From an uncultured Pseudomonadales bacterium (lineage in GTDB: Bacteria; Patescibacteriota; Microgenomatia; UBA1400; UBA12028): a DNA stretch of 64,000 nucleotides. The notes under the pieces are model-generated. The model searched no databases. It had not been told where the DNA came from and saw only the letters and a list, made by a program, of their open reading frames with translations. The DNA is taken from assembly GCA_964509365.1 (NCBI GenBank), contig CAZDWN010000002.1:231671-295670 (forward strand), given 5' to 3'. A program made the translations under genes and the position numbers. This document shows, piece after piece, positions 8,440 to 62,643 of the stretch. Numbering within the stretch: position 1 is the first letter of the stretch; each line of letters begins with the position of its first letter.

Positions 8440-8720
8440 GTTTCCTCAGTAGAAGGAATAAGGATGACTTTTTTTCCCATCTCTAGATAAATAGCTGCTA
8501 TTTCTGGGTTCCTCGTAACAATAGGTCGAGGAGGTGGAAGCGGGCATTCCTCCAATCGTTGAAGCCCCGCTTTGAACTGACGAATTTGTTCTTCCCAGTA
8601 CTCAATCTCCTCTGGAGTACATTTCATTTCTACAAAAACAGGAGTTGCGCCCATTTCGACAAGCGTGTCAAAAACTTCTTTATTATGCACGACTGGGCTG
8701 TATGTTCGCTTTTCTCCCAT
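8436..8720 (-). CDS. hypothetical protein (94 aa), translationally coupled to the PRTase
   Basis: 4-nt ATGA overlap with the downstream gene. No motif I can recognise. Confidence 0.4.
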   Translation of the reverse strand: MGEKRTYSPVVHNKEVFDTLVEMGATPVFVEMKCTPEEIEYWEEQIRQFKAGLQRLEECPLPPPRPIVTRNPEIAAIYLEMGKKVILIPSTEET

Positions 8721-8738
8721 ATTTTCCCTTACTACATA

Positions 8739-10475: not shown

Positions 10476-10486
10476 AGGGTATTGTA

Positions 10487-15617: not shown

Positions 15618-15667
15618 AACAAGTCCTAGAAGTAAAATGTGATTATACTCCAAAGATTTGACGAAGC

Positions 15668-25700: not shown

Positions 25701-27168
25701 CTTTTTGACTATCAAGTTCTCGGACCCAGTACGCCCCAAGATCGATCACGTTTCCTTGGTCGATCCATCGTCGCTTGGCTTCCTCTGGTCGATCGATACG
25801 AAATCGAGCACAATCGGGACCTTGAGTCCGGGAGTCGATGGCGATGAGGTATTCCAAATGATTATAGAGTGTCGGAAAGGTCGCGTCTCGTTCAAGTGAT
25901 TCGAGTATGATGCAGCGATTGCCGGCTAATGTAAAAAGTGAGTCGACAATGTGCTGTTGCGTCCCTATGCTTGGCCCAAATCGTTTGTCACCCCAATTTG
26001 ATTCGTTTGTCTGCAGAAGAAAGAATGTATTCATTTCAAGATGCTTCGCTGAGAGTGCCAGTGAAGTGAAGAGTACCAATGTAAGAAACACTCCGACGTT
26101 TCGATTGATTTTGCGAAGCCCACTAGCGATCATCATCGTCACACTCGGTGCCAATAGCGGTATATATGCTTCCGATGGGACCCTGTGGATCACGAGTCCG
26201 ACTGCCAAGATACAGCTACTCGCACCGACGATTCGCGACAGTAGATTACTTTTTCTCCACGTCCACACACAGATGCCAGCGCAGAGGACTATGATGCTCA
26301 GCCACAGCCACTGATCCATCGCAATTCCATTTTGAGTGAAGAGCGATACAAACAGCTTGATCAAATCTTGGATTTTTGCTCCAGATCCGCCATCGGTCAA
26401 ACTATTTTTTGTAAATGGCAGCAGCGCAGTTACGATCTTATACCCCACCCAAACCGCAAATCCTCCAAGCTGAGCAAATTGATGAGTAAGGTCAAACACG
26501 ATTTGAGGAAGTAAACCGATAGCGAGTCCAAGCCCAATCGGAAGTGTCCTGACCAGTTGGGAGCGACTCGGCCACGTTTGCTTCATTTTCACGAGAGGGA
26601 TCAACAGAATGAGTGGAAAAGCCGCAAGCTCAAACTGAAACACCAGTGCAAAGGCGAGTCCTGCCCCAAAAGCCGCCCACTTCTCACCTCGTGCAAATCT
26701 GACAATTTGCCACAGGAAGATGCAGACAAACAATGGAATCGGGACGATGTGATATGGCATCCGACTGTGGAGAATCAACATGGGAAGCAGAGAAAACAGC
26801 AGTGCTGCGAGTGTAGCTGTTCTGACGGAATCATAGGTAGCGACCAGGAGATAGAGTGCGACAATTGCCGCCAGTCCAAACGCGCTTGCCAGTAGTCCCA
26901 TCGCGAGGATTGATCCGTGGCTCAGCCAATAGGTGATCGCCAAAAAGTAAATAAACAATGGACCTTGCTTGAATCTCGGGATACTTGAAGGGATGCCCAG
27001 TAACGGGACGTGACCAAGTTCGACCATCTCTTTCGCGACCAGCGCATCTCGTCCTTGGTCTCCGACAAAGATCATTTGCGACGAAATTGAGTGGACGCGA
27101 AGAACCGTCGCAAGTGCGAGGATGAGGAAGAATATCCAATGAGTCCGAATCGCAAACCAAATTCTCAT
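25681..27168 (-). CDS. GT39/GT83-like (PMT/ArnT-type) membrane glycosyltransferase
   Basis: Polytopic protein with an N-terminal loop motif FVGDQGRD, followed by a C-terminal soluble domain. Confidence 0.6.
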   Translation of the reverse strand: MRIWFAIRTHWIFFLILALATVLRVHSISSQMIFVGDQGRDALVAKEMVELGHVPLLGIPSSIPRFKQGPLFIYFLAITYWLSHGSILAMGLLASAFGLAAIVALYLLVATYDSVRTATLAALLFSLLPMLILHSRMPYHIVPIPLFVCIFLWQIVRFARGEKWAAFGAGLAFALVFQFELAAFPLILLIPLVKMKQTWPSRSQLVRTLPIGLGLAIGLLPQIVFDLTHQFAQLGGFAVWVGYKIVTALLPFTKNSLTDGGSGAKIQDLIKLFVSLFTQNGIAMDQWLWLSIIVLCAGICVWTWRKSNLLSRIVGASSCILAVGLVIHRVPSEAYIPLLAPSVTMMIASGLRKINRNVGVFLTLVLFTSLALSAKHLEMNTFFLLQTNESNWGDKRFGPSIGTQQHIVDSLFTLAGNRCIILESLERDATFPTLYNHLEYLIAIDSRTQGPDCARFRIDRPEEAKRRWIDQGNVIDLGAYWVRELDSQKVYAKAY

Positions 27169-28439
27169 ACTGATTGCTCTGCAGCTACTTGCACGAGAGC
27201 AGGATTTGGGACGGATTTACTTTTGGCTACTTTCATTGCCTGCCAGATGAAAAGCGGTTGGATCAGAAGTCTCGAGGCGACGACTGCATAGGCGGCACCA
27301 TGGAGACCAAACTGATGAGTGAACCACCACATGAGGATGAGCATCGCAGTGAGACCAATCGCATACAGCGCGACGAGCGATCGGATCCAGTTACGGGCAA
27401 GAAACAATGGATTGATAAGCGTGTCCATCCCAGTGATAAAGGCACAGATCGATAGTGGCAAAAACAACTCAAGCGACGGTCTCCACTTTTCTTTGAGTAA
27501 ATAGATCAGTGCACCCTGCACAATCGTGGTATTGAGAGCGATCGTGGGGATGAGCATCAGTACGGCTGCAGGGAGAATGAGCTTGATGACGGCCCGCTTC
27601 ATTCGATCAGGTTCGTCGACCAGTCTTCCATAGATCGGCAACAGGACTTGTGAAAATGCCGTCCCGACCTCTGCGATCAGACTGCGAGTGAGATTAAAGG
27701 CAGTTTGATAAAAGCCTAGAGCGGTTGCCCCGAGGACTCTGCCAACTATGATGTTGTCAAAATTTTGCTCTGCATACGTGATGATCCCAACTGCATTGAT
27801 CCACTTCCCTGGCGTGATGATCGCTTCATACACTTTTTTATCAAAATGAAGTTTTGGTCGTTGTTTGATGAACACAAACGAGTAGACCACTTCGGCAAAA
27901 GCCGCCAAGATCATCGCATAGATCAGACTGTCTGCATTGTGAAAGACGCGTACAAAAAGTATTGCGGAGACTGCATCGACAATGGTCAATCCAATACGCA
28001 AATATGCTTCTTTATTAAACTCAAGATTTTTGACATACATCGCCTCGGCTGGATTGATGAAACCTTTGATTACTGGGATCACAGCAGCCAGTAGCATGAG
28101 GGGAAACAACCCCTGATCATGGAAAAACACTGGAGCTAAAAATGCGAACGCAAGGAGCACAGCTCCTATCAAGAAGCCTCTCACCATGGAGACAATATAT
28201 GCAGTATCGAGGTAGTAGCTTAAGGGCTTGCTATCTTTGATCAGGACGACATTGATCCCCGTCTCTGTGAGCATCTCCAGGAGTCCGAGAGCGATGGCTG
28301 CCAGTCCAAACAATCCGACTTCACGAGGTGAGAGGTACCGATATGCAAAGAGGACTTTGGCAAAGACAATTGCTTTTGCCCCATACCGGAATGCACCGAT
28401 CCAGCCTAATCCCTTCAAGAAATCTTTTGTATACCCCAT
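27165..28439 (-). CDS. Wzx-like polysaccharide flippase (MOP superfamily)
   Basis: About 12 TM helices with a polysaccharide biosynthesis protein-like N-terminus. 4-nt overlap with the downstream GT39 gene. Confidence 0.65.
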   Translation of the reverse strand: MGYTKDFLKGLGWIGAFRYGAKAIVFAKVLFAYRYLSPREVGLFGLAAIALGLLEMLTETGINVVLIKDSKPLSYYLDTAYIVSMVRGFLIGAVLLAFAFLAPVFFHDQGLFPLMLLAAVIPVIKGFINPAEAMYVKNLEFNKEAYLRIGLTIVDAVSAILFVRVFHNADSLIYAMILAAFAEVVYSFVFIKQRPKLHFDKKVYEAIITPGKWINAVGIITYAEQNFDNIIVGRVLGATALGFYQTAFNLTRSLIAEVGTAFSQVLLPIYGRLVDEPDRMKRAVIKLILPAAVLMLIPTIALNTTIVQGALIYLLKEKWRPSLELFLPLSICAFITGMDTLINPLFLARNWIRSLVALYAIGLTAMLILMWWFTHQFGLHGAAYAVVASRLLIQPLFIWQAMKVAKSKSVPNPALVQVAAEQSV

Positions 28440-28482
28440 AGCATTGATTGTACGACAAAATAGGCTAAACTGATAAAACAAT

Positions 28483-28875
28483 ATGAAGGAACTCGACGAA
28501 AGTGCTCGGGTACGCGAGACACCACAGCACGGATGGAGATTTGGCGGTTTATCACCTGATGATCGAGCCAAACATCTTCAAGGACTACGCGAGCTGTACC
28601 GCGCTGAGTTACACAATCGCACAAATGCACTTTCTCCAGTCTCACTGCTTCTCGATACCATTTTCGAGATTTTACTCAGTACACTACGAGGTGAAGAGCA
28701 TACAAAGACATCTTCTCGGCTTTTAAGCGAGTGTGGCTTGGGAGATATTGTAATGGAGTTTCGACAGCAACTTCGTACAGAACAAATCCCAAAAAAGTTG
28801 ACCGACGAACATATGGTGCTGTTACGTGAACTTATGGAAAGTAAAGTATTTTTTATTCTTGAGGCTTTTAAGTAA
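28483..28875 (+). CDS. hypothetical protein (130 aa), the only plus-strand gene inside the glycosylation island
   Basis: Intact ORF that overlaps the 3' end of the next minus-strand gene by 8 nt. No motif I can recognise. Confidence 0.4.
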   Translation: MKELDESARVRETPQHGWRFGGLSPDDRAKHLQGLRELYRAELHNRTNALSPVSLLLDTIFEILLSTLRGEEHTKTSSRLLSECGLGDIVMEFRQQLRTEQIPKKLTDEHMVLLRELMESKVFFILEAFK

Positions 28876-29782
28876 AGCGTGCGCTTACACTCCCTAGCAC
28901 TGTCCCCCACATGACTGCGAAATCACTAACCACTTGGAGGAGAGGAAGCCAACCAAGCGCTTGCGGATCATTGACGTACCGGTAGTTTTTCTGGATAGCA
29001 TAGGCAAAGTACACAAGTAGAGCACCGATACCGAATGCCCAGTACCAGACTCCTACTGCTATTAGCAGCAGATATCGAAGATATATGGTGAGCACTTTCG
29101 GTCGAAAAGTCCGAGAATACGCATCTCCAAATGCATGCTCAAAGATCATGCGGGCAAATGCCCAGAGGTTTTTCCTCGGTCTCCACGTGACGATGGCCGC
29201 GGGCACGACGGTGATGGGTATGTGCTTCGCTTGAAGTCGCCTGGCGAACTCATAGTCTTCGGCATAGCGATAGTGTTCATTAAACGTTCCTACCTTCTCC
29301 CAAGCGGTCTTGGTGATCCCCATGCTTCGTGTTGCAGGTAAAAATGACTCGGTGTTGATCTTGTCAGGCATGACCAACACATATGGGATCTCGCACTTCT
29401 CAAATACGGATGAGTACTCCCCTTCGTAATACCCCGCGACGACATCAGATTTTTCAAAGCCTTTGATCATGTGCGCCACCCAATCAGGATGGAGGACGCA
29501 ACCCGCGTCGGTGATGAGGATATGCTCGTACGTCGCGGCCTCGATCGCTCGATTCCTTCCGACAGCTCGATTGGCACTTTGATGGAGCGTTATGATTTTG
29601 ACATCTGTACCCGATTTCTTGATCTCACTCACATCCCATGAGGCCGTGGGGAATGCCGAGTTCTCGCCAGCAACGGTGATGATGAGCTCGTCCACTTTTC
29701 GGGTTTGATTAGCAATTGAATCCAAAAGCCTGCTAATTGTTTTCGTTTCGTTTTTAGTCGTTATGATCAAGCTAATTCTCAT
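28868..29782 (-). CDS. glycosyltransferase family 2 with C-terminal TM helices
   Basis: ISLIITTKNE...ITDAGCVLHPDW, GT2 motifs. Confidence 0.7.
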   Translation of the reverse strand: MRISLIITTKNETKTISRLLDSIANQTRKVDELIITVAGENSAFPTASWDVSEIKKSGTDVKIITLHQSANRAVGRNRAIEAATYEHILITDAGCVLHPDWVAHMIKGFEKSDVVAGYYEGEYSSVFEKCEIPYVLVMPDKINTESFLPATRSMGITKTAWEKVGTFNEHYRYAEDYEFARRLQAKHIPITVVPAAIVTWRPRKNLWAFARMIFEHAFGDAYSRTFRPKVLTIYLRYLLLIAVGVWYWAFGIGALLVYFAYAIQKNYRYVNDPQALGWLPLLQVVSDFAVMWGTVLGSVSARFT

Positions 29783-29783
29783 A

Positions 29784-30797
29784 CTAATTCCATTTCCACA
29801 ATTTCTTGTACTTGAGATACACTCGATTCCACGTTTGCTGACGTGCCCATTGGTATGCATCATCAATTTGTTTTGTGTAGTCTTCGCTTTTGATCAAAGT
29901 CAGCGCTTGTTTGAGCTCAAGCTCCGAACGGACGATGACCATGTCTTGGGAGCGAGGATGTGCCATCAGGTAATCTACTTTTAGTTCGTCAGCAGCGTAT
30001 GCGACGACGAGAGTCCTGCATTGCATTGCCTCCACAATAGCCAGATAGGATGAGACACACGCGATGTCGTACTGTGGGAAAACGGCACAGCTATCGTCGA
30101 TAGTGCCAAGTTTTGACCCTGGTCCGAACATGTCCAACTGGCAATTGTCCAGTGACCTGATTACGTTCTCATAGATCCTTGCTCCCGTGTCTTGACTGAT
30201 TCTCCCGACGAAGACTCCTCTGATTTTTTTGGATTTTGGTAATTGGATTTTGAAATTTGGTAGACATTCTCCTCCTCCATACGTCACTTCGTCAGGTTTG
30301 GTGCCGTACCATTTCTCGATCCAGTATCCGACTGCCATGCTACCACTCGTCCAACGTTGGATCATCTGTCTAGTCCGCTTCGCTTTCGGATCAATGTAAA
30401 GCTCACGGCCTTCGCCCGCCGAAGTCTTGACGGAGGAGGGCTCAAAGCCATGGTACGTGATATAGACTTTTTTCCACGGAAACAGGATTCGGATTGGCCA
30501 ATACCAGAAGAAGACGTCGTGGATCTGGATGACGTCAGCTTGGATAAACGTCAATATGTGGGCCAGCATCCAGCTCCAGATCTCGATCCGTGCTTGGATT
30601 TTGCCTCCATTCGCAGTCACTCGGTGGACATTCACTCCATCGATTACTTCCTCGCTCTTAAGCTGCGAGTCGTGTTTGAGCGTGAATACGTCAACATGAT
30701 GACCGTCCTTGATCGCTTCCCTCGATATGCCAGACACATGTTTTTCTACTCCTCCGATGTGAGGGGCATACAGCCTGCATATCATTACAATCTTCAT
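29784..30797 (-). CDS. glycosyltransferase family 4 (GT-B fold)
   Basis: MKIVMICRLYAPHIGGVEKHV, the GT4 N-terminal signature. Confidence 0.7.
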   Translation of the reverse strand: MKIVMICRLYAPHIGGVEKHVSGISREAIKDGHHVDVFTLKHDSQLKSEEVIDGVNVHRVTANGGKIQARIEIWSWMLAHILTFIQADVIQIHDVFFWYWPIRILFPWKKVYITYHGFEPSSVKTSAGEGRELYIDPKAKRTRQMIQRWTSGSMAVGYWIEKWYGTKPDEVTYGGGECLPNFKIQLPKSKKIRGVFVGRISQDTGARIYENVIRSLDNCQLDMFGPGSKLGTIDDSCAVFPQYDIACVSSYLAIVEAMQCRTLVVAYAADELKVDYLMAHPRSQDMVIVRSELELKQALTLIKSEDYTKQIDDAYQWARQQTWNRVYLKYKKLWKWN

Positions 30798-30798
30798 A

Positions 30799-31602
30799 TT
30801 AGGTTTTCCGACAGAGTATTAGAATGTTATTGGGTTGCCATTTTGTTTGAAGAATGTACTTCGCAATAAATTTCTTCAAAAAGTATAACTTTGAAAACGC
30901 GTAGAAGACTTCAAAGCGCAAAATTTTAAACCCTGCAATTGTTAACTCAGCAAAAATCAATTCAGGTAGGTAGCATCGTAAATGTTCATTCGGATTATTT
31001 GGAAACATATTCTCAAGGCCTTCGTTCATTGGTACAGAAACTAGAAGATATCCGTCTTTTTTTAGCATATTGCTTAGATTCCCAAGTGCTTGGAATGTGT
31101 GTATTGGAGAAATATGTTCAAGAACCTCAAAAATACTAACAATTTCGTACGCATTTTTGTCATTTGAATGTAATCTTGCCAGAATATCTCGTTTGTCAAA
31201 TCTGAATCTAGGGAATTTCTTTGTCAATTTATCTAATGATTTTTGAGCCAAATCTACGCCCGTATGAGAGAAGTTCACATTTAATTTAGAAATCAAACTC
31301 TCAAAATTTCCATCGCCACAGCCGACATTGAGAGTAGATGCTTCTTCCGTTACAATGTCCGAAAACCACTTTGCAGCAGTATTATTTCTATCAATTTCCA
31401 TGAAGTTCTTTAGCTTTTTCTCGTGTGTGGACGAGAATTTATTGTCCCAAAAATCACCCGTATTTTTATTTTCTAGAAGTATCTTAGTCGAGTAAGTCAC
31501 TTTTAGTTCATCCAGCTTTCTATCACGAGCGAGAATGTTGCGCTTAGATTCCATTTCAAAATATCTTCGTGCATTATTTGTTATTGACATTGTTTTAATC
31601 AT
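30799..31602 (-). CDS. class I SAM-dependent methyltransferase (AT-rich gene)
   Basis: Motif [13 protein letters not shown]. The gene has a distinctly low GC content. Confidence 0.65.
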
Positions 31603-33642: not shown

Positions 33643-34389
33643 ATGCCCGAATATGGAAAAAAGACACCCGACGAAATCAAAAAAGAAATTCTCAAGCATT
33701 CACTTGAAAAGAATCCTAATATTCCGAATGTGATTGCGTCTGCCATCTTCAATGGAAGCGATCAAAAAATATACGAGTTGAACGATACAGAACTCGCTCA
33801 GCTACTGCGCACATCCCCAAAACAGAAAATAAATGAATTCTATGATGAACTTCTGCTACATCCAGAACGCTATAATGACGAGTATATCAACCTCGTTTTG
33901 GCACCGTATGGGTATTCCTCAGAAGAATTACATATTTTTTTACAAATCATTCGAAAATCAATTTCCATTCAGACTTCAGCAAGGATTCAAACGATAGATT
34001 ATGCTCACAAAAGTGCAGAAGAACTCATGCACATCGCCACTTCACCGCGCGAGCCTGCCATAGTTGAATTTACATTTTTTCATAAGGAGTTTTTACATAC
34101 AATTGGCGAACTCGCTTATATTCTGGAGCTTTGCGATGACCCAAGGACCTTTAATCGCTTAGGAATACTCCCAACAGGGATGATCAACAAACTGCTTCTC
34201 ATCGAGAGTAATGACTGGCTTCATGATCGAATCATCGCTATCCAAAAGAATATGATCACACGAGCAGAGAATGACAATATACGCAAAATTCCGAGAACAA
34301 TTACTGATCGTGAAGTCCAGTCATACCGGACGTATTTAGTAAAGGAAGCCGAAAGACTCAGCGTACTTCAGGCTCCAAAATCACCATAA
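33643..34389 (+). CDS. hypothetical protein (248 aa), AT-rich
   Basis: ORF only. Confidence 0.4.
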   Translation: MPEYGKKTPDEIKKEILKHSLEKNPNIPNVIASAIFNGSDQKIYELNDTELAQLLRTSPKQKINEFYDELLLHPERYNDEYINLVLAPYGYSSEELHIFLQIIRKSISIQTSARIQTIDYAHKSAEELMHIATSPREPAIVEFTFFHKEFLHTIGELAYILELCDDPRTFNRLGILPTGMINKLLLIESNDWLHDRIIAIQKNMITRAENDNIRKIPRTITDREVQSYRTYLVKEAERLSVLQAPKSP

Positions 34390-35934: not shown

Positions 35935-36957
35935 TTATCGGGATGCCAAAGTGAGATTTGGATCGCGGTCAAAGTCCAGAGAATTGGGTTCATGGTGAGC
36001 AGCGGCAATACCGATCATGGCAGCATTGTCGGTGCACAACCGAGAAGTGTAAGGGAAATAGACAGGTAGATCATGACTTTTCCCAAAGGCCCGTAGTGCC
36101 TTCCGCACTTCAAGATTTTTGATCACTCCACCTCCCACGATGATCGAGGTGAGCTCTCTATTTGCGATCGCATACTCGAGTTTCTCAGTAAGATGTTTGA
36201 TCGCGGCGGTTTGAAATGCCAGTGCGATATCAGCGATGTTTTGCCGTGTGAGGTTGGGATACGATGCGACGATCCGTGACGCTGCCGTCTTGAGTCCCGA
36301 AAAACTCATATCACTACTATGGATTTGGCGCATCGGGACCGGAAACTTCACAGCTCCCGGAGTCCCTTCCCTGGCAATCTTCTCAAGGAAAGGTCCAGCC
36401 GGATATCCGAGCCCTAGCATTCTTCCGATCTTGTCATAGGCTTCCCCCATCGCATCATCCAATGTCTTCCCCACGATCTCATACTCTCCAACCGCTTTTG
36501 CATAGACAAATTGCGTATTTCCTCCTGAAAGTATCACACCCATGATCGGAAATTGAGAATTGAAAATTGAAAATTGAGAATTCTTTCGTTTTGGCTGCGC
36601 CAAAAACGAAAGCAAGTGTCCTTCTAGATGATTGACCGCGATGATTGGCTTTTTATACTTCAGTGCCAGTTCTTTTGCTTTGGCGATGCCCACCTCCAGA
36701 CAAATCGAAAGACCTGGTCCTCGGGTGACCGCGATGCGATCGATGTCGTCCCAAGTTTTGTGAGCCCGTTTGAGCGCGAGCGCTATCACCGCATCGATAT
36801 GATCTTCATGAGATTTTCGAGCCAGTCGAGGCACGATGCCTCCATATTCCAGATGGAGTGAGAGGTCGGTTGTCAGGACATTCGAGAGGATGGTCGTGTC
36901 TTGCGTGACTGCGACGGCAGTGTCATCAAAGGAGGTGTCGATAGCGAGCATGGTCAT
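35935..36957 (-). CDS. tsaD: tRNA N6-adenosine threonylcarbamoyltransferase
   Basis: MLAIDTSFDDTAVAV...HLEGH...VILSGG, as in TsaD. The gene contains a heptanucleotide-repeat-encoded insertion KNSQFSIFNSQF. Confidence 0.85.
   Translation of the reverse strand: MTMLAIDTSFDDTAVAVTQDTTILSNVLTTDLSLHLEYGGIVPRLARKSHEDHIDAVIALALKRAHKTWDDIDRIAVTRGPGLSICLEVGIAKAKELALKYKKPIIAVNHLEGHLLSFLAQPKRKNSQFSIFNSQFPIMGVILSGGNTQFVYAKAVGEYEIVGKTLDDAMGEAYDKIGRMLGLGYPAGPFLEKIAREGTPGAVKFPVPMRQIHSSDMSFSGLKTAASRIVASYPNLTRQNIADIALAFQTAAIKHLTEKLEYAIANRELTSIIVGGGVIKNLEVRKALRAFGKSHDLPVYFPYTSRLCTDNAAMIGIAAAHHEPNSLDFDRDPNLTLASR
36549..36583. repeat. 5 x 7-nt tandem array (GAAATTG AGAATTG AAAATTG AAAATTG AGAATTC) inside tsaD
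   Basis: Direct reading of the sequence. It encodes KNSQFSIFNSQF in-frame. Confidence 0.75.
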
Positions 36958-38030
36958 ACAGTGTAGGAAATGAGGCGATCATTCTCGGCCTCACCGAGTT
37001 TGATATGCACACGGATGATTTTTGCTTGGGCCTCATATTTTTTGAAGTCATCATGGAATCGATCCGCCCACTCGAGCGCAATGACTGCATTTGTAGTGAT
37101 TGCATCATCAAGTCCGATATCAGTGAGTTCATGAAAGTGCTGAAGTTTCCAGCAGTCGATATGGACAAATGTCCCCGGCATGCTTTCATTTTCAAATTCA
37201 AATTCATTCGCGATCGCATACGTCGGCGAGCTCACCGACTCCGTGATACCCAGGCCTTTAGCAATTCCTTGGATGGCGTGCGTCTTCCCGGCCCCCATCT
37301 CACCAGAAAACAAAAAGAAGACTGGAGTGTAGGTGTAGTACGAGCGAAATCGCTTCACAAATTGGGTAAACCAGTTCACTGTCTCTTCTTCACTGTGGCT
37401 GACATACGTCTCCGATGAGACAAAGTTTGCCGCTCCTTGCCGCAGTACTTGGATATCGTCCACCGTTGTGTCGATGACCGTGCTCGGTTCATTGTGTGGC
37501 AGTTCGCCGATATCGATCACCAAATCAATGAGCGCCTGCTGCGACTGCGAAGTATTGTCGAGGATGTCTTGGATCGTGTAGGGTCGCTTTTTGTTTGAAG
37601 CATTGGCGCCAGTCGCGCTGATACCGTGTCCAAACGCAGCGATCAGAGCAAGTGCCAGATCGTGTTTTGGGATACGGATACCTATTTTCCCATCTGTAGA
37701 CGCGATGCCAGGGGCGACCACGCCGTTTCCAGTGGAGATCACTGTGACTGGCCCTGGCAAGAATCGCTCATACACACCCTCAGCAGTATGATTGAGCGAT
37801 ACATATCGCTGCGCCATTGTCTTGTCAGTGACGGCGACAGAGATTGGCTTGCCGTCTCGTTTGCCTTTGTAGTCGAGGAGTTTTTGGACCGCTTCAGAGT
37901 TTTCCACATCGACCGCGACTCCATACGTCGTCTCCGTCGGATAGATGACGATTCCTCCAGACCGCAAGACACGTACCGCTTCACTGAGAATGTCTGCTTC
38001 CTTGGTGGTTTTCGATTGGATGATCGTCAC
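36954..38030 (-). CDS. fusion protein: TsaC/Sua5/YrdC threonylcarbamoyl-AMP synthase (N-terminal) plus TsaE/YjeE P-loop ATPase (C-terminal)
   Basis: N-terminus IVIYPTETTYGVAVD, the YrdC motif. C-terminus FSGEMGAGKT...SPTYAIANEF...HIDCWKL, the TsaE Walker A and conserved motifs. Confidence 0.75.
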   Translation of the reverse strand: MTIIQSKTTKEADILSEAVRVLRSGGIVIYPTETTYGVAVDVENSEAVQKLLDYKGKRDGKPISVAVTDKTMAQRYVSLNHTAEGVYERFLPGPVTVISTGNGVVAPGIASTDGKIGIRIPKHDLALALIAAFGHGISATGANASNKKRPYTIQDILDNTSQSQQALIDLVIDIGELPHNEPSTVIDTTVDDIQVLRQGAANFVSSETYVSHSEEETVNWFTQFVKRFRSYYTYTPVFFLFSGEMGAGKTHAIQGIAKGLGITESVSSPTYAIANEFEFENESMPGTFVHIDCWKLQHFHELTDIGLDDAITTNAVIALEWADRFHDDFKKYEAQAKIIRVHIKLGEAENDRLISYTV

Positions 38031-43711: not shown

Positions 43712-44785
43712 CTAGGTAAGAAAGCCTATATTGAGGTCCGGATAGATGTGTCGGACGCCTCGATGGAATCGGATTGCCATCGCCAAAAAGATGGCTAAGG
43801 AGACAAAAGAGCTCCCTCCCGAAGACAAAAATGGCAATGGGATGCCAGTCACCGGAGCAAGTCCGATATTCATAAATACATGGACAAATGTCTGGAACGC
43901 GAGCGCGCTGATGAGCGAGAATCGTAAGACTTGGTCAAATGCTCCCAAAAGTTGAATGTTCCAGAGGAGGACTGAAAATAGCGTCGCATAAATTGCGAGC
44001 AGCAAAAGGACTCCGACGAAGCCTGTCTCTTCGGCATAGGAAGCAAAGAAAAAGTCAGTATGATGCTCCGGAAGAAATCGCAGGTTTGTCTGCACGCCAT
44101 GCCCGATGCCACGTCCCCAAAACTTCCCAGATCCGACAGTGATGATCGCTTGATCGGCATTGTATCCGCTTCCCTGCTGGTCACTTGTGCCCACAAATGA
44201 GAAGAGTCGCTGTTTTTGATACGGATAGAGGACAAAATTCCATGCGACGACTGAGAGCAAGACGCCGAGCACGACCCAGGGGATGAGCAAGGTCAGTTTC
44301 GAGATTGAATACAGACAGACACCTGCCGCGATGGCTGCGAGCACGAGACTACTGCCAAGATCGGGCTGCAAGAGGACCATGCCGGCATACAGCCCTGCGA
44401 GCGCAAAGTATCCCAGCAACTGCCTGTGTGATTTGAGTCCATAGCGAGTGACATAGGTACATAGCGTGAGGGCGAGCACTGGTTTGGCGATCTCTGAGAC
44501 TTGGATGCGGACTGGACCGATCGAAAACCATCTCGATGCGCCTTTCGCTGTATACCCGATCACCAGCGTGAAGAGCAGCATGATCGCAACGATGAGATAC
44601 ATGGGGATCACCGAGAGCCGGAACAATCGTCGCGGGACATACTGGATGGCGACATACACGATCAGTCCCATGGCGGCAAAGAGCAATTGACCGTTGGCTT
44701 CCTTTGGAGAGACGCTCCAGAGCATGAGAGACGAGATTCCACCCAAGAGGGCGAGCAAAAAACCGATGAATATGCGTCTATCCAT
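43712..44785 (-). CDS. SEDS family protein (RodA/FtsW-like peptidoglycan glycosyltransferase)
   Basis: Polytopic, with SEDS conserved motifs (…GSGKFWGRGIGHGVQ…). Confidence 0.8.
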   Translation of the reverse strand: MDRRIFIGFLLALLGGISSLMLWSVSPKEANGQLLFAAMGLIVYVAIQYVPRRLFRLSVIPMYLIVAIMLLFTLVIGYTAKGASRWFSIGPVRIQVSEIAKPVLALTLCTYVTRYGLKSHRQLLGYFALAGLYAGMVLLQPDLGSSLVLAAIAAGVCLYSISKLTLLIPWVVLGVLLSVVAWNFVLYPYQKQRLFSFVGTSDQQGSGYNADQAIITVGSGKFWGRGIGHGVQTNLRFLPEHHTDFFFASYAEETGFVGVLLLLAIYATLFSVLLWNIQLLGAFDQVLRFSLISALAFQTFVHVFMNIGLAPVTGIPLPFLSSGGSSFVSLAIFLAMAIRFHRGVRHIYPDLNIGFLT

Positions 44786-53968: not shown

Positions 53969-55078
53969 TCATTCTAGCAGTTTTATCAGACGATTCGTCC
54001 CGTTCTTGATAAGAAGATTTGATTCTTCTCCCATGTGTTTTTTATACTCGTCGTAGCTGCGATCCATCTCCACGATACTGCTCCACAACGTTTCAGGCAA
54101 CAAATCTTTTTGATGAATGAGTTTTGCAGCGCCGACATGCACGAGATGCGAGGCATTCTTGTATTGCTCGTCTTTGTATGCGAATGCGAGAGGGATAAAG
54201 ATGGCGGGCGTGGCCGCAAGTATGAGCTCTTGGACCGTATTGGCTCCAGCTCGGCTGACGACGATTCGTGCATTACGAAGCAAGTAACTCACCTCACGCT
54301 CTTCGATCCATTCTCTGACCGTATAATTATCTTGTACTTCGGAAGGAAGTTTCAAGCGCTCTGTCTCCAAGTCTTTCATTACTTGAAAATCGACGGAGAC
54401 TCCACATTGATGGACGACGTAATACTCTCTGACGAGTTTTGGCAAAATCGACACAATTGTTTGATTGATGACATGGGAGCCTTGCGATCCTCCGGTGACA
54501 TACAAAATTGGTTTGGTTTTTTGAGCTCCCGTAAACCATGATGGAGCAGTCTTGTACTCACGAAACAACACTTCTCGGATCGGATTACCGGTGACGATTG
54601 TTTTCCCAGGCAAGAAATATTGGATTGAATCTTCATGAGCCACTGCCACTTTGTCTGCGATCCAGCCGATCACTTGATTTGCCAATCCAGCGACTCGCGT
54701 CTGCTCATGAGTGATCACTTTCGCACCAAAGAGTTTACCGATGAGACATGCAGGAAATGCGAGGTATCCTCCAAATGAAAGCACCACATCAGGTTTTACT
54801 TTCTTGTATTCACTCGCAACTTGCCACAAAGATTGGGGAAACTTTAGTATTTCAAAGAGATTCTCAAATACATGTGTTCTGTGAAATTTCGAAGCTTGAA
54901 TTGGAACAAAGCGAATGTGTCGATCCTCGATCTCCTGACGTTCTCGTGAAATTTGCCCCGTTTTTGTTTGAGAGAATTCTCGACCGAAAAAAATGATCGT
55001 GGATTCATTGCGTTTTTGCAATTCATCGATGACCGCGAGCGCGGGAGTGAGATGACCACCGGTTATATAAATAGTCAT
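53969..55078 (-). CDS. murG: undecaprenyldiphospho-muramoylpentapeptide beta-N-acetylglucosaminyltransferase
   Basis: MTIYITGGHLTPALAV N-terminus and dcw-cluster context. Confidence 0.85.
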   Translation of the reverse strand: MTIYITGGHLTPALAVIDELQKRNESTIIFFGREFSQTKTGQISRERQEIEDRHIRFVPIQASKFHRTHVFENLFEILKFPQSLWQVASEYKKVKPDVVLSFGGYLAFPACLIGKLFGAKVITHEQTRVAGLANQVIGWIADKVAVAHEDSIQYFLPGKTIVTGNPIREVLFREYKTAPSWFTGAQKTKPILYVTGGSQGSHVINQTIVSILPKLVREYYVVHQCGVSVDFQVMKDLETERLKLPSEVQDNYTVREWIEEREVSYLLRNARIVVSRAGANTVQELILAATPAIFIPLAFAYKDEQYKNASHLVHVGAAKLIHQKDLLPETLWSSIVEMDRSYDEYKKHMGEESNLLIKNGTNRLIKLLE

Positions 55079-55080
55079 AG

Positions 55081-56220
55081 TTATGTACGGTTATTTGTGT
55101 AGCGACGCCCTTTTGAGAGGTGAGATCGCGACGACGCTTCCGATTCGACTGGGATACCGATCAAGATCCCCACTGCACTACACAGTGACAACAGCGCGGT
55201 GCCCCCATACGAGATAAATGGGAGGGGTACACCGGTCAGCGGAATCAGCGCGACGACAGAGCTTAAATTGACGAGGACTTGGGCAGCGATCCACGTCATG
55301 ATGCCAGTACCAAGGAGGTACGATTGCTCATCGTCATGCACTGCCCTGACTTTTTCCCCCACCTTCGAGCAGAGTGCGATGTATCCGATAATAATGATAC
55401 CACATCCCACAAACCCAAACTCTTCCGCCAAGATCGCAAAGATCGAGTCCGTACTGGCTTCGGGGATGTAGCGATACTTTTGCTTGGATTTCCCGAGACC
55501 TTGGCCAAAAAGCCCGCCATTTCCAAGTGCGATGGTGATTTGATGGATGTGATATGACTTTCCCTGGGGATCACTGTCAGGATCAAGAAAAGTCGTGACC
55601 CGTTGCATGCGATACGGAGAGATAGCGATCAAAATGAGGATGCCAAGTCCCCCGCCGACTGCCAACCACGCCAAATGCTTCAGCGGCTTGCCCGCGACGA
55701 CATACATGCCGGTCGCGATCGAGAGAATGATCAGCCCACTTCCGAGATCCGGCTGCAGCATAATGAGTCCAAACATCCCGCCGACTAGAAGCGCGAAGCT
55801 CAAAAACCTGCGAGGTTTGGTCAGCCAAGTAGAGAGATAGAGCACCAGTCCCATCTTCATGAGTTCGGATGGTTGGAATGAAAATCCAGCGAGCGAGATC
55901 CATCGCCTGGCTCCTCCTATCCGTACCCCAAGCCCTGGGATCAAGACTCCAATGAGCAGCAACAGTGCCACACCAAATATCAGCGGACCGACCTTGAGCC
56001 AAAATGAAGTTGGAATTTTTGAGACGATAAAGAGAGCGATGATCGATATCGCAGCCCAGAGTGCTTGCGACCGTACGTAGTAAAACGAATCATGAAATGT
56101 CACAAAACTCTCGACGACCGAGACGTTGTACACCATGAGCACTCCGAAGAGAATGAAGCCGAGGACAAATGCCAGTATGGTCCAGTTCCATGACCGTACG
56201 ATGCGGAGGGCAGCTGTCAT
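55081..56220 (-). CDS. ftsW: SEDS protein FtsW (lipid II polymerase)
   Basis: SEDS motifs and a position between murD and murG. Confidence 0.8.
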   Translation of the reverse strand: MTAALRIVRSWNWTILAFVLGFILFGVLMVYNVSVVESFVTFHDSFYYVRSQALWAAISIIALFIVSKIPTSFWLKVGPLIFGVALLLLIGVLIPGLGVRIGGARRWISLAGFSFQPSELMKMGLVLYLSTWLTKPRRFLSFALLVGGMFGLIMLQPDLGSGLIILSIATGMYVVAGKPLKHLAWLAVGGGLGILILIAISPYRMQRVTTFLDPDSDPQGKSYHIHQITIALGNGGLFGQGLGKSKQKYRYIPEASTDSIFAILAEEFGFVGCGIIIIGYIALCSKVGEKVRAVHDDEQSYLLGTGIMTWIAAQVLVNLSSVVALIPLTGVPLPFISYGGTALLSLCSAVGILIGIPVESEASSRSHLSKGRRYTNNRT

Positions 56221-56230
56221 AGTTCCCTCC

Positions 56231-57436
56231 TTATGGCGCGTTCACACTTTCTATCCATTTTTTATATTGTCGACTCCGATCGGCATAATCTTCAAACAAT
56301 CCAAACGACGGTGATGCAGTCGACATGAGTACACTTGACCCGCTTGGAGTCAGTGCATACGCCTGAGTGATTGCCTCTTCCATGGACTGCACTGGTACGC
56401 ACTTGATCGAAGGAGCCAGCGCAGAGACGAGATCTGCGATGATTGCTCCTGTGGTCGGAAAGTGTATCAATGTGTGGACGGTTGATGTCGCGATTTTTGT
56501 GGCGAGCGCATCATATGATTGATGTCGATCAAATCCTCCGACGATGAGAGTCGCGAGGTGTGGCGTCGAATCGATCGCTAAGATCGTCGCTTCAGGGATC
56601 GTCGCCACAGCGTCATCGTAAAACGAAATGCCACGTTGTTCAGCCACTTTCTCCATGCGACCAGGAAGAGTCTTCAGCGTGGACAGAGCCTCTTTAATTT
56701 GTTTTTCAGATGCCTTGCGTTCGCGAGCGATCAGCACTGCTGGAATGTAATTGGTTGGCACGTCCAGAAGCTTCGCATTATATGGAATTCGTTTGGAGCG
56801 AACTTCGCTCAAGAGCGCGACGAGGTTTGGATACTCATCTCGATACAAACACAAATCAGTTTCCGTCTGTAACAGAAACAGATGTTGCTTGGCTCTGGTG
56901 TATTCTTCCATGGTGTCGTAATAGTCCAAATGATCCTGATACAGTGATGTGAAGACGGCGATATGCGTCCCGCGATGCAGTGACTCAGTTTGAAATGCGC
57001 TCATCTCAAACACTGCGGTCGTCTCGTCATCCATTTGATCGACAAAATCAAGGGCTGGTCTGCCGATATTTCCGATGAGCACTGCATGATGGCCAAGCGC
57101 GTTGAGGACGTGGGCGATCGCATGAGCCGTCGTGCTCTTGCCTTTGGTCCCAGTCACTGCGATGGTTTGCTCGCCAAACAGTTGCGTAAAGAGATCAGCT
57201 TGACTGGTCAAATAGGATTTTGACGATAGCGTGAGAAATTTTTTGGGGATGCCCGGTGATTTGAAAACGACATCTACACTTGGGACATCAAAGTGGTCTT
57301 GGTGATTCTCAAAAATGAAGACTTTGGTATGCGGGAAGTACTTTCGCAAAAACTGGGTCGTGCTTTTTCCCTCGCGACCGTTCCCGACGATTGCGATGCT
57401 TTGAGCGCTAGTGAGCCAGTCAGGAAAATCAGGCAT
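56231..57436 (-). CDS. murD: UDP-N-acetylmuramoylalanine--D-glutamate ligase
   Basis: Mur ligase P-loop VTGTKGKSTT. Position between mraY and ftsW. Confidence 0.8.
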   Translation of the reverse strand: MPDFPDWLTSAQSIAIVGNGREGKSTTQFLRKYFPHTKVFIFENHQDHFDVPSVDVVFKSPGIPKKFLTLSSKSYLTSQADLFTQLFGEQTIAVTGTKGKSTTAHAIAHVLNALGHHAVLIGNIGRPALDFVDQMDDETTAVFEMSAFQTESLHRGTHIAVFTSLYQDHLDYYDTMEEYTRAKQHLFLLQTETDLCLYRDEYPNLVALLSEVRSKRIPYNAKLLDVPTNYIPAVLIARERKASEKQIKEALSTLKTLPGRMEKVAEQRGISFYDDAVATIPEATILAIDSTPHLATLIVGGFDRHQSYDALATKIATSTVHTLIHFPTTGAIIADLVSALAPSIKCVPVQSMEEAITQAYALTPSGSSVLMSTASPSFGLFEDYADRSRQYKKWIESVNAP

Positions 57437-58709
57437 AGTGTTGTAAGAGCAATGGTAACTCTTTTCCTTCTCGTCTGTGTAGTGCCATCTTGAGTGCTTC
57501 GATTGATTCCGATCGAGTACCGACACATTCAAACGGTTTGAACTCAACTTTCCCTAGGAGTGCATCGAAATGTGGTATCAAATGATCTTGATTCATCACA
57601 TCAGATCGAAAGATGCGGGCGATTGTCTCATCATCGAGATATGCTGAGAGCAGCAACGCGACAAAGGCACATTTTCCACATTTTCCGCACCACACGTTGT
57701 CTTTTTGGCCGACATTGCAGCTATGGAACACTTCAAAATATTCTGGAAAAGTGACAAATTTTTCCATGATCGCCAGTTCATTCATCGAACGCAAATAACT
57801 AAAATATCGTGGTGAGCTCGATCCAAACAGTGAAGTGACATACGACTGAAAGTCGCGTTCAAATTCTACTGATTTGGAGTACTGGTGATTAATATCGATT
57901 CCTTCCCAAGTTCCTGTCGGCTCGTTACTGCTCGATTCATTCGAGATCGCGATCTGGGGTATCTCATACAGTCGTGCAGTCAGTATCGTAAAAAATGCGA
58001 GCACTGATGAGAATGGAGTATGCCCATTGGGATGACCTTCACTATTCAGTTCACTGAGACGAGAGTCTAGCGTTCGTGAAAAGACGATATCACCAAGTCT
58101 CGGATGTCTGGATCCAAACAGATCGATGACGTCTGCAGATGATCCCTTGAGTCCTGACCAGGTGTAGATGGCTCGACCCTCAACGGCCAGCAACTCTAGT
58201 GTCACGATCGAATCTTTGCCTCCACCTACTGGGACCAGCACAGCTGATAGCTTAGAGCTTGTAGCTTCTAGCTTGTCATCCTGAGCGACCTGGTACTCCA
58301 GGCGGTCGAAGGATAGTTTTCTTTCCGTGCTTTTGAATTCCGGCTTGAACGGCTTAATCTTATTTTGATAGAAAAATTCTCCGAGTCCAAAGTAAAACAG
58401 CTTTTGCCAAAATTGGATTTGAGTTGCATCTAAGTTCCCGCACTGGATCTCTATCGTCGGAGATAAAAATGCTTTCCAGTAGCTGGGGATCTCGGCGATT
58501 CCAAGTTGGAAGATATACTCATCGAGTTCAGGTTTTGAGATCTTTTTAACCATCTCTTCAGTCACACCTGAGATCGTATCGACAGTCGTCAGTTTCTCAT
58601 CGCCACAAGAGAACTGAAATGAGAGCTCGATTAGACCCGGCTTTAATTCGTATGAGTATGAGTCATACGAAAACAGAGGATACGTTTTTTGTAATTCTTC
58701 GAATGTCAT
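57429..58709 (-). CDS. hypothetical PP-loop (SGGxDS-type) ATP pyrophosphatase-like protein with CxxCGKC motif, inserted in the dcw cluster
   Basis: LVPVGGGKDS matches the PP-loop. A C-terminal WCGKCGKC cysteine cluster is present. The gene contains repeat copy C and a heptamer array in-frame. Confidence 0.5.
   Translation of the reverse strand: MTFEELQKTYPLFSYDSYSYELKPGLIELSFQFSCGDEKLTTVDTISGVTEEMVKKISKPELDEYIFQLGIAEIPSYWKAFLSPTIEIQCGNLDATQIQFWQKLFYFGLGEFFYQNKIKPFKPEFKSTERKLSFDRLEYQVAQDDKLEATSSKLSAVLVPVGGGKDSIVTLELLAVEGRAIYTWSGLKGSSADVIDLFGSRHPRLGDIVFSRTLDSRLSELNSEGHPNGHTPFSSVLAFFTILTARLYEIPQIAISNESSSNEPTGTWEGIDINHQYSKSVEFERDFQSYVTSLFGSSSPRYFSYLRSMNELAIMEKFVTFPEYFEVFHSCNVGQKDNVWCGKCGKCAFVALLLSAYLDDETIARIFRSDVMNQDHLIPHFDALLGKVEFKPFECVGTRSESIEALKMALHRREGKELPLLLQHYA
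58242..58276. repeat. 5 x 7-nt tandem array (AGCTGAT AGCTTAG AGCTTGT AGCTTCT AGCTTGT) abutting repeat copy C inside the PP-loop gene
   Basis: Direct reading of the sequence. It encodes KLEATSSKLSAV in-frame. Confidence 0.7.
58275..58321. repeat. Structured repeat element copy C, in-frame inside the PP-loop gene
   Basis: GTCATCCTGAGC, then CCTGG-tact-CCAGG, then GGTCGAAGGATAGTTTTC. Compensatory stem changes relative to copies A and B. Confidence 0.7.
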
Positions 58710-58761: not shown

Positions 58762-59805
58762 TTATAGTAGCGATATCCACAGTCCGATAAGCGTGAGGAT
58801 GAGGCCAGCGAGCCAGGCACGAGCGACGATCTTCGGTTCTTCCCAGCCGATATATTGAAGATAGAGATGAAATGGAGCGACCGGAAATATTTTCTTTTTC
58901 ATGATCGCTTTGGACAACAGCTGCATCCCACTCGTCAGTACCTCCACAAAGAAAAGTCCACCGATGACGACGAGTCCGACGGTCTTGCCGAGCAGAAGCC
59001 CGACGACCGCTAGAGTCGCACCAAAAGCGAGTGCTCCCACATCACCCATCCAGATACGTGCAGGATTCACATTGAAATACAAAAATGCGATCAATGATCC
59101 GATCCACAGTGAAATAAAAACTGAGAGCGGAGTATCTAAGATCGATGCCGACAAGATCCAGAATCCAAACAAACAGATCATCAAGATGCCAGCGGCGAGG
59201 CCGTCAAGTCCATCTGTAATATTGACTGCGTTCGCAAACGAGACGATGGTAAATGCAGCAAATGGCACATAGACCCATCCAAGATTGAGGGTTCCTAGGA
59301 ATGGAATATGCAGAAACGAGATCCCTAACCAGTTGTAGAGCATGAGTGCGATCGCAAATCCCAGTATCCACTGTAAGGTAAATTTATGGATCAAACGCAT
59401 CCCAAAGAACTTCGCTTTTTCAAATCCAAAAAACTTCTTTGCATCGTCGTAGAGACCAAGTGCACCAAACGACAGCAAAGTAAAAAACAAGATGACGACT
59501 TCAGGCTTCAAGGGATACACCGGTAAGATGGGGAAGCCAGACATCTGCATGAGCCAAAGGACGATCGGTGACAATAGCGCGACGACAGCGATGATCAGTG
59601 CTCCGCCACCGACAGGTGTCCCTGCTTTGTGTTGGTGAAAGCGATCAAAGATCGGACTTCGTTTCCCTAATGCGTCGATGGTAGTTTGCTTTTGCCTCTG
59701 AAATTTGATGCGATACAGCATGTTGATAAACGGCACAATGAGCAAACTCGTGGCAACAAACGAGATGATCACATTCCCAAGGTAGAAAGAAAGTGCGCTA
59801 TTCAT
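58762..59805 (-). CDS. mraY: phospho-N-acetylmuramoyl-pentapeptide transferase
   Basis: Polytopic, with conserved MraY Asp-rich loops. Confidence 0.85.
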   Translation of the reverse strand: MNSALSFYLGNVIISFVATSLLIVPFINMLYRIKFQRQKQTTIDALGKRSPIFDRFHQHKAGTPVGGGALIIAVVALLSPIVLWLMQMSGFPILPVYPLKPEVVILFFTLLSFGALGLYDDAKKFFGFEKAKFFGMRLIHKFTLQWILGFAIALMLYNWLGISFLHIPFLGTLNLGWVYVPFAAFTIVSFANAVNITDGLDGLAAGILMICLFGFWILSASILDTPLSVFISLWIGSLIAFLYFNVNPARIWMGDVGALAFGATLAVVGLLLGKTVGLVVIGGLFFVEVLTSGMQLLSKAIMKKKIFPVAPFHLYLQYIGWEEPKIVARAWLAGLILTLIGLWISLL

Positions 59806-61533: not shown

Positions 61534-62643
61534 CTACAAATTTTGGGCGATGAGTCGCTTGAGCTCATCAAGCCCCTCTCCCGTCTTTGCCGACACGAGC
61601 ACATGCCGTGTCCCCAGGAATTTTTCACGCAGGAGTTTTTTTTCTTCACTGCCCAAGTTGTCTATTTTATTGAGCACGAGCACTGGCTCTTGATACGCCG
61701 GCAACTCTTTGAGGATTTCTTTGACTGTCTCTATCTTCGAATCGATCCTCGCATCACTCGCATCGATGACATGGAGGAGGACATCTGCCTGAATACTCTC
61801 TTGGAGCGTCGAGCGGAATGCATTGATGAGCAATGGAGGCAATTCATCGATAAAGCCAATGGTGTCAGAGATGAGGACATCACCGTCGACTTTTGGGATG
61901 TGTACTTTCCCCAACACGCTATCAAGCGTCGTGAACAACTGTGAATTTTCCTGCTTTTCTTTCCCTGTCAGCAAATTAAATAGCGTTGTCTTCCCGGCAC
62001 TCGTATAGCCGACCAGCGCAGCAGTTCGGACACCGCTTCGTCGACGATCATTTATGCGACTTTGCGCCATCTTCGAACGATGAGCAAGCTCTGTCTCTAT
62101 TTGTTGCACCCGTCGTTTGATATGTCTGCGCTCTATCTCACTATTTGTCTCACCAGCTCCTCGCGTCCCGATCCCTCCGCCTTGTTTGGAGAGCACCGTG
62201 CCACCGAGACCATAGATACGCGGTCCAATATGCTTGATTCTGGCAAGTTCGATCTGTAGTTTTGCTTCGGTCGTTTTTGCGTGCATTTCAAAAATAGCGA
62301 GGATGAGACCGACGCGGTCCCAGACTTTGATCAGTCGATTGACCGGCCAGAGTGCCTGTTCGAGACGAAACAGTTGTCCTGGTTTCACGATGTCATTGAG
62401 GACGACGACATCTATTTTTTCATCCTCGACGAGATGTGTGAGCCATTCGACTTTGCCTCCACCGATATAGGTCCCTGCATGCGGCGTCGGGCGGTGTTGT
62501 GTGGATTTGGCCACCACGAGACCACCGGCAGTGTCGACAAGGGCTTCGAGCTCTTCCATGTCTTTGAGAGCTTTTTCCTCGTACTCATGTCGGGTGATCA
62601 CTTGCAGTAATACAAATCGAAGTTGTTGGTGTTGTGTGGTCAT
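61534..62643 (-). CDS. hflX: GTPase HflX
   Basis: HflX N-terminal domain plus the G-domain motifs GYTSAGKTTL and DTIG. Confidence 0.85.
   Translation of the reverse strand: MTTQHQQLRFVLLQVITRHEYEEKALKDMEELEALVDTAGGLVVAKSTQHRPTPHAGTYIGGGKVEWLTHLVEDEKIDVVVLNDIVKPGQLFRLEQALWPVNRLIKVWDRVGLILAIFEMHAKTTEAKLQIELARIKHIGPRIYGLGGTVLSKQGGGIGTRGAGETNSEIERRHIKRRVQQIETELAHRSKMAQSRINDRRRSGVRTAALVGYTSAGKTTLFNLLTGKEKQENSQLFTTLDSVLGKVHIPKVDGDVLISDTIGFIDELPPLLINAFRSTLQESIQADVLLHVIDASDARIDSKIETVKEILKELPAYQEPVLVLNKIDNLGSEEKKLLREKFLGTRHVLVSAKTGEGLDELKRLIAQNL

Follow-up and report, generated by a model that had tools for sequence, protein, structure and literature searches.

In E. coli mraY and murD adjoin directly, so that a further gene between them truly departs from the E. 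coli order. What does such a gene encode? The question is raised by a stretch of 64,000 nucleotides (nt) of contig CAZDWN010000002.1 (positions 231,671 to 295,670; hereafter, the window), placed by GTDB in the Patescibacteriota, in which an open reading frame (ORF) of 426 amino acids (aa), here called ORF426, separates the two genes within the division and cell wall (dcw) cluster. Pfam and TIGRFAM profiles confirmed both neighbours (Table 1), as an earlier sequence-only reading of the window had proposed. We consider ORF426 a distant member of the MurL family, predicted to epimerise L-Glu to D-Glu after ligation by a MurD2-type enzyme, so that the pair would stand in for glutamate racemase (MurI) and MurD as the source of stem-peptide D-Glu; we assign to this reading a probability of about 0.88. 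ORF426 thus represents a known pathway in a lineage outside its published distribution, and not a new activity. The sequence-only reading had called the protein uncharacterised and its activity novel, which does not hold, the MurL family being already characterised and covered by the models NF041275 and PF26299/PF26298.

Family assignment of ORF426

The only match of ORF426 in the NCBIfam scan was NF041275 (MurL_Xanthmoales), with an E-value of 1.4e-65 and 221.6 bits, aa 12-417 being aligned to positions 9-401 of the 447 of the profile. An identical public protein (P0001) carries the precomputed domains PF26299 (MurL_N) and PF26298 (MurL_epimerase_C), which are found on all the 120 homologues listed, several of which have MurL as their Joint Genome Institute (JGI) product name. 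We take MurL to be the enzyme EC 5.1.1.23. The Xanthomonas sacchari murL product, annotated as such by the Prokaryotic Genome Annotation Pipeline (PGAP), has 30% identity to ORF426 over 96% coverage, and GGGKDS, NGH, SNE, NHQxSK, FE, SCN, WCxxCxKC and KPFECVG are common to the two proteins. Precisely, they agree in the pyrophosphatase loop (PP-loop), in each of the five conserved Cys and in most of the remaining invariant motif residues. Xanthomonas MurL (X. oryzae XOO_1319) also resembles ORF426 in its two-domain architecture, its length class and its near full-length match to the profile; unlike many MurL members, ORF426 lacks a C-terminal tail of about 30-40 aa.

A word-indexed search returned more than 7,391 homologues of ORF426, and HMMER run exhaustively against 1.84 billion cluster representatives (clusters at 50% identity) gave 2,352 clusters at E <= 1e-3, of which 989 reached E <= 1e-30. 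ORF426 is therefore a genuine gene rather than an ORF arising by chance. Its nearest named homologue, at about 54% identity, is from Candidatus Woesebacteria, and on this basis the source genome is probably patescibacterial. The Pfam-A scan of ORF426 gave no match because the release used predates the MurL families, and this does not make the protein an orphan. In the PDB sequence search, with the single ORF426 protein as query, nothing was found.

MurL enzymes from Xanthomonas oryzae, Micromonospora and Salinispora have been characterised biochemically (PMC8788868, PMC5808125). X. oryzae is without glutamate racemase and D-amino-acid aminotransferase, and two of its adjacent genes complement an E. 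coli D-Glu auxotroph; its MurL uses one ATP per turnover, releases AMP, requires Mg2+ and does not carry out the D-to-L back-reaction (PMC8788868, PMC5808125). The net outcome, D-Glu at position 2 of the stem peptide, is the same as for MurI with a canonical MurD. MurI, however, is a cofactor-independent two-Cys racemase that acts reversibly on free glutamate, whereas MurL works in one direction only, on the ligated residue and at the cost of ATP. The substrate of MurL is a soluble peptidoglycan precursor, and the sequence-only reading was right in expecting an enzyme of cell-wall precursors.

Association of murL with murD

We sampled the loci of the family by taking one genome per GTDB species and the best 80 of at least 600 matches. 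These 80 loci comprised 41 from Bacteroidota, 34 from Bacillota, 2 from named members of the Candidate Phyla Radiation (CPR; Saccharibacteria and Paceibacter) and 3 unclassified, in a sample that is biased as regards taxon counts. A murD homologue lay directly downstream from murL on the same strand at 63 of the 80. Of the remaining 17 loci, 16 extend for 1.7 kb or more downstream from murL, so that in these the lack of murD is real.

The dcw placement suggested by the sequence-only reading as a check was found in relatives. At 74% and 54% identity the order murA-mraY-murL-murD-ftsW-murG-ftsQ-ftsA-ftsZ is kept, with murL/murD overlaps of 11-14 nt, and four CPR-type loci (L021, L031, L046, L062) have the order mraY-murL-murD-ftsW-murG of the window. 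As in the window, murL of Xanthomonas is followed by murD with overlapping stop and start (20 nt in X. sacchari) and its partner ligase has MurD2-type residues. The window pair occupies the canonical murD position inside dcw, whereas in Xanthomonas, Bacteroidota (Bacteroidales) and Bacillota (Clostridia) the pair is a free-standing two-gene cassette. For the window murD, ATG 57436 (401 aa) is most likely the start, rather than TTG 57547; with this start murD begins within the murL stop region, in ATGCCTGA, and matches the relatives with their 11-14 nt overlaps. From its sequence, we read the 8-nt overlap as translational coupling of the two genes.

The two proteins are also found as one polypeptide. 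Six of the best 80 loci (L044, L061, L072, L073, L075, L078) have a single MurL-MurD ORF, and the fusion at L044 was checked (7914-10703, 929 aa). Of the top 150 cluster representatives, about 40 have lengths of 790-1,250 aa; Mur-ligase domains were present in all nine of the long representatives tested (from P0121-P0236), on either side of MurL, and P0050 is a MurL/Mur-ligase fusion with the opposite domain order. That fusion has recurred, and in both orders, argues strongly for two proteins acting one after the other.

Some members of the family differ in context. The 16 of the 80 loci at which murL has no adjoining murD are mostly from Bacteroidales, with two from Oscillospiraceae (L003, L004, L007, L008, L011-L013, L019 and others); at L003 and L004, murL is flanked by a DUF179 gene and a dCMP deaminase gene, near parA/parB. 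The fusion P0127 has an additional C-terminal M20 peptidase domain. In the fusion P0224 (932 aa) the ligase part has the PF01225 Mur_ligase N-domain together with strong scores for the M and C domains, a pattern of MurC/E/F-type ligases and atypical of MurD, so that MurL may be fused there to a different Mur ligase. MurL homologues with 25-27% identity, annotated as hypothetical, are on three Pseudonocardia plasmids of 121-385 kb (hits H2-H4).

Specificity of the adjoining ligase

The neighbouring ligase was evaluated on an alignment of E. coli MurD, X. sacchari MurD2, the window MurD and the MurL-linked MurDs. The key residues of MurD2, which in X. oryzae are E197, R358, P433 and F435, correspond to D182, K348, A414 and L416 of E. 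coli MurD (review; PMC8788868, PMC5808125). E197D and R358K each alter the stereospecificity of MurD2, the E197D/R358K double mutant switches to D-Glu, and K319T makes E. coli MurD accept L-Glu; P433 and F435 are not specificity determinants (review; PMC8788868, PMC5808125).

At E. coli positions 182/319/348/414/416 the residues are D/K/K/A/L in E. coli MurD, E/I/R/P/F in X. sacchari MurD2 and D/V/R/P/F in the window MurD. With V/R/P/F at 319/348/414/416, the window MurD is thus MurD2-like at four of the five diagnostic positions: it has the Arg, Pro and Phe of R358, P433 and F435 and, as X. sacchari MurD2, has lost the Lys of E. coli K319. These residues lie in the motifs QDH (Asp at 182), GGFDR (Arg at 348) and SPSF (Pro and Phe at 414 and 416), the last of which has APSF as its counterpart in X. 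sacchari MurD2, with identical Pro and Phe. Over the whole protein, the window MurD has 24.5% identity to X. sacchari MurD2 and 24.4% to E. coli MurD.

All the 63 MurL-linked MurDs have Arg at position 348 and Ile, Leu or Val at position 319, and position 182 is Glu in 57 and Asp in 6 of them. Lys at position 319 is found in E. coli MurD and in three other solved D-Glu ligases (4buc, 3lk7, 7sy9). Loss of this Lys together with Arg at 348 is the simple sequence signature that we derive here for MurD2-type ligases.

PGAP annotates the Xanthomonas MurD2 as a D-glutamate ligase (L087:6304-7740, X. sacchari NZ_CP010410), and the same annotation on the window murD would be equally misleading; NCBIfam apparently has no MurD2 model, which would explain a systematic mislabelling of L-Glu ligases. 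The 508-kb record NZ_CP010410, although termed a plasmid, also has core genes (aspartate kinase/diaminopimelate decarboxylase and single-stranded DNA-binding protein).

Fold and conserved motifs of MurL

Reviews up to 2021 described MurL as a protein without a known domain and of unclear mechanism. A full-length AlphaFold2 (AF2) model of ORF426, built from 106 sequences, had a predicted local distance difference test score (pLDDT) of 93.3 and a predicted template modelling score (pTM) of 0.91. In it an N-terminal domain (aa 1-130) is joined by a disordered linker (aa 141-148) to a C-terminal alpha/beta domain, whose strand 156-160 leads into the GGGKDS loop and then into the helix 165-176. In the 106 homologues P160, G162-G164, K165, D166 and S167 are invariant, as are C331, C341, C344 and C347. 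The motif KPFECVGT, which is also in Xanthomonas MurL, has invariant K391, C395 and G397, and P392, F393, E394, V396 and T398 are at least 90% conserved in the same sequences.

Both motifs on which the sequence-only reading had relied, VPVGGGKDS and WCGKCGKCAF, are present in the translation, and its assignment to the PP-loop ATP pyrophosphatases was borne out by the invariant GGGKDS and by two comparisons. The family profile matches the TtuA sequence exactly at the PP-loop (E 1.4e-3), and most top Foldseek matches in the PDB are PP-loop enzymes, namely TtuA, YcfA-ATP, MnmA/TrmU, a Methanocaldococcus PP-loop protein, argininosuccinate synthase and GMP synthase. The Foldseek probability reaches 1.0; against the assignment, the best E-value is 4.6e-4 and the template modelling (TM) score on the query about 0.25. 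The PDB copy searched with Foldseek has no MurL structure, and the open-access literature searched had nothing relevant on a MurL structure or on patescibacterial MurL. Taken together, the model and the matches make a PP-loop ATP-pyrophosphatase fold for the C-terminal domain of MurL well supported. The family to which the profile searches assign ORF426 is one with this predicted fold, and in relatives its gene is kept in dcw, so that neither outcome named by the sequence-only reading as counting against it was seen.

As regards the Cys cluster, for which the sequence-only reading had proposed a likeness to QueC/TtcA, the motif aligned in register, with a weak score. In the alignment by hhalign with E. 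coli QueC, VPVGGGKDS falls on VFSGGQDS and SCNxGxKxNxWCGxCxKC on TCYNGFKGDGCGHCAAC, so that C331, C341, C344 and C347 coincide with four Cys of QueC; the probability is 7% with an E-value of 0.0048, and neither a Zn site in MurL nor a specific kinship with QueC is proven by it. We take these four QueC Cys to be its Zn site. QueC adenylates a carboxylate, as does asparagine synthetase. No QueC family match to ORF426 was obtained in the NCBIfam or Pfam scans, and MurL would be like QueC at the adenylation step without being a QueC member. By analogy with QueC, the cluster most likely binds a structural Zn, which we favour over an oxygen-labile Fe-S centre because the published activity is aerobic with ATP and Mg2+ only.

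MurL shares with QueC and the other PP-loop ATP pyrophosphatases an SGGxDS-type loop after the first strand of a Rossmann-like core and ATP-to-AMP chemistry, and with QueC in particular a C-x8/9-C-x2-C-x2-C pattern (x8 in QueC, x9 in MurL) and, as proposed here, carboxylate adenylation. Unlike them, it has no significant membership of their sequence families, carries a further domain at the N-terminus and a helical region at the C-terminus, acts on a UDP-sugar dipeptide, and would carry out stereoinversion and hydrolysis instead of N or S transfer. The N-terminal domain, in which YWK and GLGEFxYxN are invariant, probably binds the UDP-MurNAc-dipeptide (MurNAc, N-acetylmuramic acid). The AF2 models that include it have pLDDT 93-95, and the one built of this domain separately gave no significant fold match in the PDB; a topology faintly like that of RNase H (E at least 6e-3, TM below 0.45) was all that came up, and from it we draw nothing about the ancestry of the domain.

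Proposed mechanism

A PP-loop ATP-pyrophosphatase fold with a Cys4 cluster fits the published ATP-to-AMP chemistry, and the experimental basis of the following scheme is the stoichiometry and the direction of that reaction in other MurL family members. On the basis of fold and motifs, the GGGKDS loop would hold the beta and gamma phosphates of ATP, the alpha-carboxylate of the terminal L-Glu would attack the alpha-phosphate, and an acyl-adenylate and pyrophosphate would be formed. Adenylation would then acidify the C-alpha proton. Inversion could follow by deprotonation and reprotonation, for which the invariant C395, H230, H275, K279, E258 and E284 are candidates, or via an oxazolone, and hydrolysis of the D-adenylate would free the product and AMP and so make the reaction irreversible. 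The assignment gives a mechanistic frame in which the residues of interest are K165, D166, S167, C331/341/344/347, C395, H230, H275 and K279.

Alternative readings

The sequence-only reading had offered two activities for this PP-loop protein. One was that of a PP-loop amidotransferase, or amide-forming enzyme, acting on a peptidoglycan precursor (for example on Glu or meso-diaminopimelate, mDAP) as AsnB/LtsA does. The fold and the placement within the lipid I/II operon would suit such an enzyme, and carboxylate adenylation is also the first step in amidation, but we consider it very improbable, given full-length homology to MurL that includes most invariant motif residues and a conserved partner that is MurD, often fused. 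A glutaminase is also lacking. The N-terminus is MTFEEL and no glutaminase (Ntn Cys2) domain was found by Pfam or NCBIfam, as that reading had itself noted, nor is there a glutaminase partner gene in the conserved neighbourhoods. In vitro, the MurL members assayed carried out epimerisation and no amidation (PMC8788868, PMC5808125), the MurL reaction being ATP-dependent L-to-D epimerisation. Slightly less probable still is a tRNA- or nucleoside-modifying enzyme (TilS, TtcA/TtuA, QueC or MnmA-like) that lies in dcw by chance, for which we found no evidence beyond the fact that the nearest solved structures are TtuA, MnmA and YcfA and that the Cys cluster is QueC-like. This likeness is remote (11-14% identity, E at least 4.6e-4) and confined to the nucleotide-binding core; Pfam and NCBIfam gave no match to the TilS, TtcA/TtuA, QueC or MnmA families, and linkage to MurD and fusion with it in three phyla indicate a role in peptidoglycan.

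Several points weigh against the assignment of ORF426 to a MurL acting after a MurD2-type ligase. Its score is far under the equivalog cutoff of 700 bits of NF041275 and its identity to Xanthomonas MurL is only 30%, and the assayed MurL enzymes in the accessible literature include none from CPR, Bacteroidota or Bacillota. NF041275 is an equivalog model trained on Xanthomonadales, and from the sequences a score under its cutoff is expected of a homologue with 30% identity from another phylum; for the same reason ORF426 is unnamed in the source record. Moreover, where X. oryzae MurD2 has E197 the window MurD has Asp, so that, considering the effect of E197D, the ligase could be less strictly specific for L-Glu, although this Asp recurs in the 6 of 63 MurL-linked MurDs noted above, which are from separate lineages. 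Finally, the domains Asp_Glu_race (glutamate racemase) and Aminotran_4 (class-IV aminotransferase) were not found in the window ORFs of at least 190 aa, which, as it covers the 64-kb window only, is a weak negative.

The same Asp leads to another explanation, in which the MurD partner has kept, or returned to, specificity for D-Glu or for both forms and MurL is a corrective or salvage epimerase for mis-ligated L-Glu, instead of the sole source of D-Glu. Asp at position 182 is shared by the close relatives L001 and L002, and E197D changes the stereospecificity of MurD2 (review; PMC8788868, PMC5808125). The effect of E197D alone was partial, however, and the full switch needed E197D/R358K (review; PMC8788868, PMC5808125). 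Apart from position 182, the four diagnostic residues are of the MurD2 type (among them Arg at 348 and the lost Lys319), tight translational coupling is retained, and there is no murI in the 64-kb window. We therefore regard a salvage role as improbable, if the least so of the three alternatives, and keep to MurL with a MurD2-type ligase.

Distribution and implications

The published spread of MurL covers Xanthomonadales, few Alphaproteobacteria and rare actinobacteria, with homologues of low similarity in cyanobacteria, a fungus and an amoeba (PMC8788868, PMC5808125). CPR/Patescibacteria are missing from it. Judging from the homologues found here, the family extends through Bacteroidota, Bacillota and CPR and is thus far broader than published, a breadth already recognised by database curators (Pfam, KEGG-style annotations).

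We lean, by a small measure, towards a wider proposal in which two things hold together: MurL is a QueC-like PP-loop/Zn(Cys4) enzyme that adenylates a carboxylate, and the MurD2/MurL route is the standard one for stem-peptide D-Glu in many CPR/Patescibacteria and in large gut and rumen groups of Bacteroidales and Clostridia, often as one fused MurL-MurD polypeptide. If true, so broad a route would undercut the proposal of this pathway (MurD2/MurL) as a narrow-spectrum antibiotic target, the family being carried by commensal Bacteroidota and Bacillota. For the window, a hypothetical protein becomes a specific, testable enzyme.

Gene cluster and other features of the window

On the minus strand of the window, the cluster order is murC (partial), murB, hflX, murA, mraY, ORF426, murD, ftsW, murG, ftsQ, ftsA and ftsZ. 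Table 1 gives the coordinates of the features considered above.

Table 1. Genes and motifs of the murL region, as positions of the window
Feature	Positions	Strand	Description	Evidence
ORF426 (murL)	57429..58709	minus	ATG start, 426 aa, N-terminus MTFEEL	ORF list, NCBIfam, Pfam
MurL N-terminal domain, aa 1-135	58305..58709	minus	invariant Y77-W78-K79, W101, G108, E111, N116	AF2
PP-loop VPVGGGKDS, aa 159-167	58209..58235	minus		conservation, TtuA/QueC alignment, AF2
WCGKCGKCAF, aa 340-349	57663..57692	minus		window translation
Cys cluster C331-x9-C341-x2-C344-x2-C347 (SCNVGQK...WCGKCGKC)	57669..57719	minus	putative Zn(Cys)4 site	conservation, hhalign
KPFECVGT, aa 391-398	57516..57539	minus	C395 candidate catalytic acid/base	conservation; role inferred only
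murL stop/murD start overlap, 8 nt	57429..57436	minus	ATGCCTGA	window sequence
murD	56231..57436	minus	401 aa from ATG	TIGR01087 murD, 261 bits, above cutoff
mraY	58762..59805	minus	upstream neighbour	Pfam Glycos_transf_4, TIGR00445
ftsW	55081..56220	minus	dcw, downstream side	Pfam FTSW_RODA_SPOVE
murG	53969..55078	minus	dcw, downstream side	Pfam Glyco_transf_28, Glyco_tran_28_C

The gene of an HflX-type GTPase (61534-62643, minus strand) is between murB and murA in the cell-wall cluster; its placement is the same in the relative L001, in which one additional gene of 237 aa lies between murB and hflX. The window has two genes of the SEDS family (FTSW_RODA_SPOVE), the ftsW of dcw and a rodA-like gene (43712-44785, minus strand), about 10 kb apart.

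The gene content of the window is housekeeping, and the Rfam scan gave tRNAs only, with no rRNA. Two ORFs, 13971-15737 (minus strand, 588 aa) and 33643-34389 (plus strand, 248 aa), had no Pfam match at E <= 1e-5; the former sits between dnaE and gatB. One ORF at 36954-38030 (minus strand) combines a Sua5/YciO/YrdC (TsaC-like) domain with one of TsaE and lies immediately upstream of tsaD (35935-36957); from these domains we read it as a fused module for the synthesis of N6-threonylcarbamoyladenosine (t6A). At 23749-31602 (minus strand) there is a surface-polysaccharide cluster, which consists of a Wzy_C-like O-antigen ligase/polymerase, three glycosyltransferases, a PMT_2-type transferase, a Wzx-like flippase and a methyltransferase.

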